Below are positions 35,915 through 41,092 of a DNA stretch of 64,000 bases, in pieces. The position numbers and the translations under genes are program-made. Below the pieces are notes generated by a model. The model was given only the letters and a program-made list of their open reading frames with translations, searched no databases and had not been told where the DNA came from. The DNA lies in NCBI GenBank assembly GCA_965645245.1, contig OZ287070.1:1426001-1490000 (forward strand), given 5' to 3'. Each line of letters begins with the position of its first letter. Within the stretch, counting starts at the first letter, position 1. Source of the DNA: Massalongia carnosa (Eukaryota).

Positions 35915-38702
35915 ATGGCTTTAGTCCACGACAGCTTCAGTGATTTCGTGCTTTTCCCCAAAGATAACTCACATTTCGAAATGCTTGAATTGAGGCAAGA
36001 GGAAGGGTTTGAGAACGCGCATTACATACCTACAGCTGCTATGCACCACCATTTTTCCGAACTGGCAAACCCCACATATGATGCGTACCCTTCGACGTCT
36101 CCTTTCTCTTATGACCTTTCTGGGATTCAAAACCAGTATGCCGCCTTAAACTTTGTCTTTGACACTCCAAAGGAGAATGAAAGGGTTACTCAACAGCGAT
36201 TTACACCATCCGGGTCTCCTTCGCCATCCGTGACCCAATCTTTCGATCATCCCCCATCGATTCTCTCATCTACTTCGGGTGCTTCGGCACAGAGCACCCC
36301 CTCGTCGGCCGTTGGGTCCCCTTACTCCCACGAGACCAACCATGTTCCCGCTCAAGAGCTCTGGATGGAGTCACATCAGGGTTTGGGTATTGCGCCTGGA
36401 ATTGCCCACTGTGAAGGTTATGGAAATGACATGTACTCCTTAACTAACATTGAAAATGACTTGACCTTCAACGGAGACAAGTTCTCAAATAGCTTCGTCG
36501 GTAAGTCCCAGATGGTTTTTTCAACCTCTTCTGCTAGCTCCGCTTCTATGCCTGCTTCAGCTTCATCATGTATTTCTTCACAAACCTTCAAACCTGCATT
36601 GACCGCCTTGCCGCTCACGCTCGACACATCTCTTGTGCTCAAAGATGGCATACTCAACTCGATCCGTGAAGAGGCCAACGGCAAGATTGATACGTTAATT
36701 ACCGCAACAATATCTCCGTTTCCAACAAGCTTGATTGAGACCTCGCCGAGACAGTTTCGCAATACGCGCTTCGTTCATCCATCTTCCCGCGCTCAAAGCT
36801 CGTTCAAGTCACCAAAAACCCCAGCCTCAGCTTCAAGCATGTCTCCGTTCGCTTCCCGCAAACCCCCACAAGCTTGGGTTCACGACTATAACCCGCAAGA
36901 AACTTTCATGGGTGCTTCTAGTGATTCAATGGCTCCAGAAAACCCGACGCCATCAGCCCATCACACCCACCCACATGAAGGGTCAATCACCCCTGCCTGT
37001 ACCCAAGCTCATCCATTCCGGACCTTTCATCATGCCCAGTCCCATTTCTTCAGCCAAAGCAGCAGCAGTTTCATTGCTCCGCTCGAGTCATCTTGTTGGT
37101 TTTCCTTAGCTGCTTATTCCTTTATATTTTTCCTTTCATCAGGTTTCTCTTTCAGATTATTGTGATTTAAACGTCGTTAGGTTTCGTTATCTCACGGACC
37201 AAAAGCTGATAACAAGGCCCATAGATCCTTCTCTTATCCAACCCTTCGATACCCCAACTGCCCACCATACATCAGCAGCGGCTTTCCCCGGCGTGATTCA
37301 GGCATTTCACCTTCCCTCGCAAATGATTCACCCACCGTCGCCAGTTTTATCGGATGCGTCAAGCCATGACTCTCACAGGCCAAGCTCTACGAGGTTTAGG
37401 AGTGGTAATACATCTCCTTACCTGCGAACCGCTGGGTACCAGCCATATCCTACCGCTTCTGAGGCTCGTCGACTTTCTATCGCATCGACACATTCCCGAA
37501 ATTCTCAGGAGAGCCCTAGATCGTCGAGCATGGGGTTTGACGATGAGAGTAAGGAGAGGGGTCGATGCCCTAACCCCGATTGTGGGCGGCTCTTTAAGGA
37601 TCTGAAGGCTCACATGTTAACCCACCAACCCGAAAGGCCGGAAAAATGCCCAATTGTAATTTGCGAGTACCACCAGAAGGGGTTTGCCCGCAAGTATGAT
37701 AAAAACAGGCATACCTTAACCCATTATAAAGGTACGATGGTGTGCGGGTTTTGCCCTGGCTCGGGTTCCGCGGCGGAGAAGAGCTTTAATCGTGCCGACG
37801 TTTTCAAGCGCCATTTAACCTCAGTTCATGGTGTAGAGCAAACTCCGCCGAACAGTCGCAAGAAAAGCCCTACCACATCCTCATCCAAGAAAATGTCCGG
37901 CTATTCACATGATGCAACCGGCAAATGCTCTACTTGCTCGGCAATGTTCAACAATGCGCAGGAGTTTTACGAACACTTGGACGATTGCGTCCTTCGCGTT
38001 GTACAGCAAGAAGAACCAAGCGAATCAATCAATGAACAACGCTTGGCGGAGGTAGCCAATGATCAAGCCGTACAAGATACCCTCGACCGCCTTCTCCCCC
38101 CGCGCGGGTTAGACTGTTCTACGCGAAATAATGCATCCTTTGACGAGGAGGATGAGGAAGACGAAGGTGAAGGCCCTAAAGATGAAGGAAACGACGTAAC
38201 CTGGACTGCATCAGTTACCACCAATCTTCGCTCAGGCAAGGGCACGATCAAATCCAGTCGAGGGAGTTCAAGTTGACAATTAACACATCCCCAAGGTGTC
38301 GGTTCGCACGTTGGGGGTGGCAACGGTATTTCAAAGCCTGGCCGGGGTCCCTTTGGTGGGAGAGGGCGCGGCATGACATATTCCAAAGGCGGAGTTCCTT
38401 TGACCGGCAAGGGCCGGAAGAAAAGAAAGCATTATCCACTCTCGTGGGGCTGCTCTGCAGAAAAGATGAAGATGAAAAAACGAGTGCTGTGTGTTTATGA
38501 CGGGCCACGAAGGCTTTGGAAAGATGACATGATGCTCGACAGCGAATTTGAAGTGCGAATGCGGCTAGGAGATGGCAAATCCTATGTCACCGATCTCGAC
38601 GTGGAAACTGTAAAGAGAGCGGATGCACTACATAATGCCACTGAGGAAGAGAAGGGTCCCTGGATTGAAGATGGAGTGGACATTGAAAAATTGATGTCGT
38701 GA
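35915..38702 (+). CDS. C2H2 zinc-finger transcription factor; exon 35915-36500 (or to 37094), then 37225 onward; internal TGA at 38274-38276 followed by an in-frame C-terminal block
   Basis: Fingers CPNPDCGRLFKDLKAHMLTH, CPIVICEYH...HTLTH, CGFC...FKRHLTSVH and CSTC...HLDDC; splicing yields FVDPSLI; 5'UTR intron 35789-35849. Confidence 0.88.
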
Positions 38703-39425: not shown

Positions 39426-41092
39426 ATGATTCGACAGGACTTCAACCATCTGGATCCTAAACGAAGAAACGTAACCGATCATAAGAAGAAGCAGTTTGCA
39501 GCTCCCACATACGAGCAGCAGGAATACCCCCATCGGCTGAATCTTTACGACCTCCCCCCGGTCGCTGAGATCACCCTGGAACAGTTTGAACAATGGGCAA
39601 TCAACAGATTAAGAAGTATCTCACTCACTGTTGGGCTGTAAACTAAACTACGGAACCGCGCTGATGATGAAGTTCCAGTCCTCGCTGAGATCGAGGCTTG
39701 CTCATTTCGCAACAAGAACCCCGCCGAGACCGCGGCACACATTAATCCCCTTCTGCAGAAATGGCTGCCTCTTTCCTCAAACTCTTCGTCTTCCATTGGT
39801 CATAAGGATGACAAGCTGCGGCTTGAACGCCAGAAGGACCACTATTCACATTACATTCTCCGCCTAGCGTTCTCGTCGACCGAAGATCTGCGTCGGCGCT
39901 TCCTGCGGGTGGAAGGCGCACTTTTCAGGTTGCGTTTTCAATCAGACGACGCGAGAGAACGTCAAGCCTTTGTTGAGTCTCTTCGTATGAAGTGGGAAGT
40001 GGTGTCTGACGGGGAGAAACGCGAATTAGGGCTTGAGCTGCTAAATGCAACCCCAGGCTTAAGAAAGCACGACTTGGAGGAGGGAAGCTGGTTCAAGGTC
40101 GATTTCGAGACAGTCCCGGAACTAGTGGAGAGCCGAAAGGTCTTCCTTAGAGGGGGCAAAGCATATGTGCCTGTGAAAGAGCAGCTAAGCGTTGTGCTGG
40201 CTGAATTTGGGGGAAAACTTGATAAAGGGCTAGAAGTACGGGAGTTCTCTTCCCGAAAACACCCTCAAATGTTAGGCATGCCTTAGCTAACGTTTTGGCG
40301 TAGATCACAGCTCGGGCGCTCCCTCGCCTGGATGAAGACGATCGCTTAACGCCCATACTAAATCACCTTTCCAAAAACTTCGCAACTCCCGATTCGACGA
40401 TTTCGGACTCCGATTCAGCCCTTTCGGGTGCACCTATCAATGCTTCATCAATTGACAGTCTGTCCCCTCATTTCCCGCTGTGTATGCGTAACTTGCACAT
40501 GACGCTGCGCAAGAATAGCCATTTGAAGCATTATGGACGTCTCCAGTACACTCTTTTCCTCAAAGGCATTGGGCTATCATTGGAGGACTGCCTGATTTTC
40601 TGGCGCCAGTCTTTCAAACTCGTCACGGACGACACCTTCAACAAAGAGTACCGTTACAACGTACGGCACGCATATGGTGACGTCGGTGGAGATGCCACCC
40701 GGCGGGGGCGGGGCTATTCGCCATTTTCTTGCCAGAAGATCCTTACTGAACACCCGCCCGGGAGCGAGGAGAGTCACGGGTGCCCGTACCGTCATTTCAG
40801 CGTCGAGAATCTCACCAGCTTGCTGCAGGCGACCGGCGTTAACGATCGGGATGTAATGCGAGGGGTCAAGGATGACGTGGAGAAGAAAAGATTCCATATC
40901 GCCTGCAACCGGGTCTTCGAATGGGCGCACAAGAGCGATCTCGCCCGCGTAAGGGAGGATGGCTCGTGGGGGACGGCCGAGCTCGACACGATCGTGCATC
41001 CCAACACCTATTTCAAGAGGAGTTATCTGTTGCGCTCGGGGGCCAGCGCGAGATCCCGCGAGAGCGAGCCTGATGGAATGGATTTGATGTGA
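39426..41092 (+). CDS. PRI2: DNA primase large subunit; introns 39616-39678 and 40236-40303
   Basis: EITLEQFEQWAINRL, KDHYSHYILRLAF, HFPLCM, HLKHYGRLQYTLFLKGIG, YSPFSC...HGCPY (Fe-S cysteines), HPNTYF. Confidence 0.95.

Follow-up and report, generated by a model that had tools for sequence, protein, structure and literature searches.

Probable readthrough of a conserved in-frame UGA in a probable ZfpA_C-family zinc-finger gene of Massalongia carnosa

The window analysed here is a stretch of 64,000 nucleotides (nt) of DNA from Massalongia carnosa (assembly GCA_965645245.1, contig OZ287070.1, positions 1,426,001 to 1,490,000 of the forward strand), and all positions given below are those of the window. 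It carries a gene for a probable C2H2 zinc-finger transcription factor whose reading frame is interrupted by an in-frame TGA at 38274-38276. We believe, with a probability of about 0.8, that programmed UGA readthrough and not a GC-AG intron explains this internal stop. A first-pass annotation of the same DNA had proposed that the gene makes a short and a long protein, by readthrough of the stop in its CAA-TTA context and/or by regulated retention of a weak GC-AG intron. The first half of that proposal, isoforms made by readthrough, is strongly supported by comparative evidence: the related genes that bear the stop have it within an invariant UGA-CAA-YYA, behind it comes a covarying hairpin, and the tail beyond is under purifying selection. 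The second half has fared badly, for reasons given below where splicing is weighed.

The reading of the frame itself was correct. CAA TTA follows the internal TGA, and the frame then stays open for 141 codons until a second TGA closes it (Table 1). The possibility of a base-call error, which the first-pass annotation had left to be checked against other data, is excluded by the presence of the TGA in DNA contigs from two independent studies. Contigs of X1 and X3, from one study that is possibly the source of the window, are identical to it across the stop. Over 3201 nt a 26-kilobase contig of X4, which comes from the second study, departs from the window at 12 places, none of them at the stop; X5 lacks coverage of 38154-38474. 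The contigs of all four runs are DNA, since intron 1 of the gene is present in them. The stop is genuine and not a sequencing error. TGA has not been reassigned either, because it also ends the long open reading frame, and it is the ordinary terminal stop in the window gene and in most relatives.

A scan of metagenome contigs gave 79 related loci, and in 72 of them a single tblastn match covers the site. Left out of this count for want of such a match were L034, L052 (which was split into two pieces), L064, L072, L076, L077 and L079. The stop lies at the same aligned codon in 38/72 related loci, or 39/73 when the window is included, and a shared position on this scale is far above chance. When class is assigned by best named hit, which is a crude method, 26 of the stop-bearing loci are Dothideomycete-like and 12 Lecanoromycete-like, and the stop-less loci are Leotiomycete-like (14), Eurotiomycete-like (8), Sordariomycete-like (6) or other (six). 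The stop is common to two fungal classes and is therefore old.

The first-pass annotation had pointed to the context of the stop in the window alone. An alignment of orthologues finds both the stop and that context conserved. Among the 36 distinct stop-bearing sequences the stop is TGA in 36/36, the codon after it is CAA in 36/36, and the second codon after it fits YYA in 36/36 (TCA 17, TTA 12, CTA 6, CCA 1). Elsewhere in these genes CAA makes up 46% of the Gln codons, TTA and CTA together 11.8% of the Leu codons, and TCA 17% of the Ser codons. The YYA pattern is kept while the residue it encodes alternates between Leu, Ser and Pro. No other in-frame stop occurs in the roughly 480 codons of each of the 36 sequences. 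Tobamoviruses have UAG-CAR-YYA as their type I readthrough signal (Skuzeski 1991, reviewed in PMC3542737), and CARYYA also stimulates readthrough of UGA (PMC3542737).

Where the stop is gone, the signals around it have been lost as well. L041 has GGT at the stop codon and GTC in place of YYA, and its hairpin is absent; in L008 a nine-codon deletion takes out the stop together with the 5' arm of the hairpin. In the closest protein relatives the stop column holds Trp (P0004) or Gly (P0008). The codons TGG and GGA, which are presumed here since these two are known from protein only, are each one base from TGA.

The hairpin begins 9 nt past the stop, and readthrough-stimulating 3' structures typically start about 8 nt past it (PMC3542737). 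In the window it has 13 base pairs and a predicted energy of -22.4 kcal/mol (z -3.4), and 0/200 shuffled sequences were as stable. RNAalifold predicts a stem after the stop from 34 aligned sequences. In the 12-pair structure written out for it 90.1% of cells are paired, and sliding the partner by 1-3 columns lowers this to 42-55%. Compensatory changes on both sides are found at 7/12 pairs, and 0/500 shuffles match the observed values, a significance that related sequences inflate, as the tool itself warns. In this stem the window has CAA...GUU (A-U), and most relatives have CGR...GYC (G-C). On the evidence of covariation, then, the hairpin is conserved. Seven relatives were folded alongside the window and six of them fold like it; the same architecture is seen in L013, L038, L016, L007 and L057, and L017 differs, with another hairpin at the same place.

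Stability and substitution patterns agree with this. The 50-nt segment after the stop has a mean energy of -23.7 kcal/mol in 34 stop-bearing loci versus -11.7 in the homologous segment of 32 stop-less loci. Among the segments of its own gene it ranks at a median of 1%, and in the window it is among the gene's most stable segments. Third-position entropy lies at 1.0-1.8 bits ahead of the stop, drops to 0-0.7 bits between the stop and codon +8 (with an exception at +6), and drops once more at about +12 to +17. Over the first 18 codons past the stop the synonymous divergence is 0-0.5, versus 0.1-2.7 in the flanks, and it is below both flanks in every pair. A search of 38150-38450 against Rfam gave no match at E <= 1.

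Two Pleosporales-like loci have parted from the usual arrangement. L017 (3509-3570) and L045 (3503-3560) keep TGA CAA TYA ACC, and the usual HPRGV...HVGGG stretch is gone from both. At an unchanged distance L017 carries another hairpin (GGUGGUGC...GCACCACC), and L045 has a weak hairpin only.

The tail behaves as protein. Between pairs of stop-bearing sequences the ratio of non-synonymous to synonymous divergence (dN/dS) of the tail is 0.05-0.13, the same as in the upstream zinc-finger part. The tails of L038 and L039 differ by 19 synonymous and 0 non-synonymous changes, and those of L057 and L058 by 55 and 15. Both halves of the gene lie in one frame in all stop-bearing loci, and the indels between them are multiples of three. 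From this pattern of substitution we conclude that the tail is under purifying selection as protein-coding sequence.

Judged by its domains and homologues, the gene probably encodes a Pezizomycotina transcription factor of the C2H2 type that belongs to the ZfpA_C (PF28332) family. In a local Pfam search zf-C2H2 scored 22.1 bits on the upstream part, under its 25.2 cut-off, and Rua1_C was weak. The Cys and His columns between C114 and C254 of P0002 are nearly invariant in 21 aligned sequences. The 141-residue tail matches 945 longer proteins, and PF28332 is precomputed on all 120 among the matches listed. In the aligned full-length models this block sits C-terminal to the same zinc fingers, so the statement in the first-pass annotation that orthologues carry it in the same polypeptide as the fingers is borne out. 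The name ZfpA_C for PF28332 is taken from Atlas rows; the family is named after Aspergillus fumigatus ZfpA. An earlier thought that the gene might be SltA, ACE1 or Sda1 was dropped, there being no such named member among 240 listed homologues.

Against 52 relatives the tail is 52-82% identical. Within it the basic patch RKKRK looks like a nuclear localisation signal (NLS-like), and the residues R397, R400, K401, Y403 and P404 of P0002 in this stretch are invariant in 21 sequences. The local Pfam search assigned the tail to no family, with E allowed up to 1. An AlphaFold2 model of the tail built on 53 sequences has a mean predicted local distance difference test score of 59.4, with a core of 70-80; it shows beta-hairpins and a helix and is moderately confident only; Foldseek of this model against the PDB returned nothing at E <= 0.001.

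The alternative that survives best is that splicing removes the stop, through the GC-AG intron or some other frame-preserving intron, constitutive or regulated, and we consider it improbable. The elements that the first-pass annotation described are all present. CAG/GCAAGG (GC at 38236-38237), the branch-like ATTAAC at 38279-38284 (TTAAC/TTGAC type) and the AG at 38294-38295 bound a segment of 60 nt whose removal preserves the frame. Many public models of relatives also put an intron here (SGK/GV.SH, for example). The GC donor on which this intron depends is not conserved, however. The first two bases at its position are GC in 27 of the 34 aligned sequences and otherwise GT (3), GA (2), GG (1) or CT (1). 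Read against the coding frame, this variation is wobble at the third position of a Gly codon. The AG of the acceptor occurs in no more than 12/34. The segment upstream of the stop varies mainly at third positions, with indels in multiples of three. In X4 the bases ahead of the candidate donor are CGG and not CAG (G at -2), and in the window the candidate AG falls within the 5' arm of the hairpin.

Transcript-like contigs speak to the same question. L014 lacks exactly two segments that are present in its genomic relative L040, with which it is 90-94% identical, and each missing segment runs GT...AG with a CTAAC-type branch site. L014 is probably a spliced transcript contig because the missing segments look like canonical introns. 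It nevertheless reads ...GCG TGA CAA TTA GCA CAT CCC... ungapped. L013 likewise has the spliced junction ...F-Y-P-T-L-I-Q, where genomic contigs have ...SSC...(intron)...DP.LIQ, and it keeps TGA CAA TTA. Both contigs retain the counterpart of 38236-38295 though spliced elsewhere. The part of the isoform proposal that rested on a retained GC-AG intron is not supported, given the wobbling donor, the inconstant acceptor and these two contigs. One of the segments missing from L014, at 1314-1415 of L040, is a second intron of canonical form, lying ahead of the main exon.

The public gene models need not be read as evidence of an intron. They cross the stop by inconsistent junctions (SGK/GV, TYG/V, .../HPRGV and others), which vary even among close species as if predictors were dodging the stop, and at least 11 of 150 listed representative proteins end at the stop position. 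Both the junctions and the truncated models look as though gene predictors had to deal with a stop inside the frame. As a matter for annotation, the models behind public proteins P0005-P0118 and P0127-P0195 either finish at the internal TGA or bridge it by introns, with junctions differing between close species, and many are probably misannotated.

Adenosine-to-inosine editing of the messenger RNA (mRNA), UGA to UGG (Trp) and perhaps stage-specific, would give the long protein without readthrough by the ribosome. The first-pass annotation had offered this as a less likely third route, and we find it very unlikely. Fusarium and Neurospora are established cases in which stop codons are edited to UGG (PMC13123824), and the closest relative, P0004, has Trp at the stop codon. 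Fungal editing, though, is known to favour UAG codons whose A sits in a hairpin loop, and the description concerns Sordariomycetes (PMC13123824). Here the stop is TGA in 36/36, its A precedes the hairpin by 9 nt, and the lineages resemble Dothideomycetes and Lecanoromycetes. Editing also leaves the invariance of CAA-YYA unexplained, and the contigs that resemble complementary DNA read TGA.

There is just as little chance that translation truly ends at the UGA, leaving the tail either untranslated after a recent truncation or pseudogenisation, or expressed on its own, through re-initiation or a separate transcript. Annotators often take the stop as terminal, as the listed proteins that end there attest. 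A dead tail does not fit its low dN/dS in stop-bearing lineages or the lack of any stop or frameshift in it in 36 sequences, and a recent truncation does not fit a stop that two fungal classes share. Separate expression is no easier to support: no conserved ATG precedes the GRKKRKHYP.SWGC stretch (the GMT of the window is GLT in most relatives), and the frame of the tail is always that of the zinc-finger part. Selenocysteine, for which one might cite a stop that is always UGA and a hairpin close downstream, has a negligible probability because stop-less relatives show Trp, Gly or a deletion at the site and not Cys, and the Dikarya are not known to have the selenocysteine machinery.

Several points weigh against readthrough and should be set beside the evidence for it. 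Among the sequencing runs listed for the species of the window none is on record as RNA, and all four used gave DNA contigs. The sequences compared are related, so counts such as 36/36 and the shuffle controls overstate independence. Natural CAR-YYA cases are mostly UAG and not UGA (PMC3542737). Structure after the stop is weak in L045 and L059, and the stem of L037 has an A-C mismatch. The window itself has a GC...AG pair whose removal deletes the stop in frame, and L013 and L014 are Dothideomycete-like relatives whose assemblies drop minor isoforms. Since the transcripts come from relatives only and assemblies may miss minor isoforms, use of the GC...AG pair in the window keeps a small probability.

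We return to programmed readthrough and to how it would work. The mRNA would keep its in-frame UGA, and most ribosomes would probably terminate there to give a protein of 743 amino acids with the zinc fingers and no tail. In a minority a near-cognate tRNA would decode the UGA, and translation would go on for 141 codons to give a protein of 885 amino acids, which would thereby acquire the ZfpA_C block along with the basic patch RKKRK. Two signals in cis seem to be responsible for the leak, CAA-UUA (the CAR-YYA of tobacco mosaic virus, type I) and the 13-base-pair hairpin 9 nt downstream.

The tail may control nuclear import or activity, a guess that draws on the basic patch and, by analogy, on the regulated localisation of ZfpA. 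ZfpA fused to green fluorescent protein shifts from cytoplasm to nucleus under azole stress (PMC10434176), so that localisation is regulated in the ZfpA family. It is a speculative step further, and one we hold to be doubtful, that UGA-CAA-YYA and the hairpin form an ancient regulated translational switch whose rate varies with release-factor or tRNA state, stress or development. If such a switch were real, readthrough would set the share of the factor that carries the basic patch and ZfpA_C, and hence nuclear import or activity. It would rank as the first recoding site of such deep conservation in a transcription factor of fungi, one that most Dothideomycetes and Lecanoromycetes have in common, and dozens of public gene models in the ZfpA_C family would be wrong.

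Readthrough at this site would matter in more immediate ways as well. Cellular readthrough in fungi is known mainly for short peroxisomal tails, and in this gene the leaky stop would stand ahead of an entire conserved domain in a transcription factor. The signal is kept over two fungal classes that include lichen formers and many plant-associated species. For recoding research it would be a natural hybrid, a type I hexanucleotide on UGA with a 3' hairpin, and for fungal biology it offers a testable route to two forms of one regulator. It would also account for the disagreeing public annotations of the ZfpA_C family, which a simple rule could correct.

The layout of the gene is collected in Table 1. 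The product of exon 1 aligns with the N-terminal parts of full-length orthologues. Joining across intron 1 gives ...LESS-Y-PSLIQ, which matches orthologue models, and the same junction is spliced in L013 and L014. Intron 1 has an unusual donor, GTTGGT; its position is conserved family-wide, in phase 1 and inside the Tyr codon of SS-Y-PSLIQ.

Table 1. Coordinates of the features of the ZfpA_C-family gene in the window
Feature	Position	Strand	Remarks
Coding exon 1, C2H2 (ZfpA-family) gene	35915..37094	+	ATG 35915, MALVHDSF...; ends one base into a codon
Intron 1	37095..37224	+	GTTGGT...CATAG, 130 nt, phase 1
Coding exon 2 to internal stop	37225..38273	+	Zinc-finger region about 37566-37988; short isoform 743 amino acids
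Candidate GC-AG intron of the first-pass annotation	38236..38295	+	60 nt; read here as coding sequence plus recoding signal
Internal in-frame UGA, proposed leaky stop	38274..38276	+	In contigs of X1, X3 and X4; TGA in 36/36 distinct stop-bearing sequences
CAA TTA, CAR-YYA readthrough context	38277..38282	+	Directly after the stop
Proposed readthrough extension, 141 codons, ZfpA_C (PF28332) block	38277..38699	+	Long isoform 885 amino acids
RNA hairpin, 9 nt past the stop	38286..38319	+	Arms 38286-38294/38311-38319 and 38296-38299/38306-38309; loop 38300-38305
Basic patch RKKRK within GKGRKKRKHYP	38415..38429	+	NLS-like from pattern only
Terminal stop TGA, long isoform	38700..38702	+	

Two further observations concern the surroundings. 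At 38403-38404 X4 has an adjacent AC>GT change that turns the Thr of the window (PLTGKG) into Val, the family consensus (VPLVGKG); the Thr allele of the window is therefore the derived one. The downstream neighbour on the same strand, at 39642-41089, is a gene for the DNA primase large subunit (PF04104, E 9e-68 at 40304-41089 and 4e-09 at 39642-40283), interrupted by at least one intron.

In the literature searched, which lacks most subscription journals, we found no account of readthrough in the ZfpA_C family; the fungal cases that came up were peroxisomal tails behind UGA-CUA (PMC4207609) and editing. Aspergillus fumigatus ZfpA (PMC10434176, PMC10174577) is likewise a C2H2 factor and carries the same C-terminal family name. 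The excerpted text of PMC10434176 mentions no internal stop, and we liken the two by family name and not by orthology; the 8 Eurotiomycete-like loci of the metagenome scan are without the stop, unlike the window gene.

Among known readthrough systems one that comes close is the tobamovirus type I signal, with which the gene shares CAA-YYA after the stop in all 36 distinct sequences. That signal belongs to a plant virus and usually follows UAG, whereas the present one sits in a cellular fungal gene and always follows UGA; it also needs no hairpin, and here a conserved hairpin is present. The type II signals of alphaviruses and a coltivirus combine UGA-CGG or UGA-CUA with an extended stem-loop about 8 nt on (PMC3542737). 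The likeness there is the UGA with a stable stem-loop 9 nt downstream, and the difference is that the next codon here is CAA in every case and never CGG or CUA, with a compact stem (13 base pairs in the window). Another is the UGA-CUA readthrough by which metabolic enzymes of fungi and animals gain a peroxisomal targeting signal (PMC4207609), since it too is cellular UGA readthrough giving a C-terminally extended isoform with a new property. Those are enzymes with short tails, and here CAA-YYA and a hairpin would lead into a conserved domain of 141 residues in a transcription factor. Readthrough of the Drosophila POU/Oct factor (PMC8417969) also yields a longer isoform of a transcription factor, in an animal gene and with an unrelated protein and signal. 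The kind of mechanism is thus known, and what would be new is the gene family, the combination of UGA with CAA-YYA and a hairpin, and the depth to which it is conserved.

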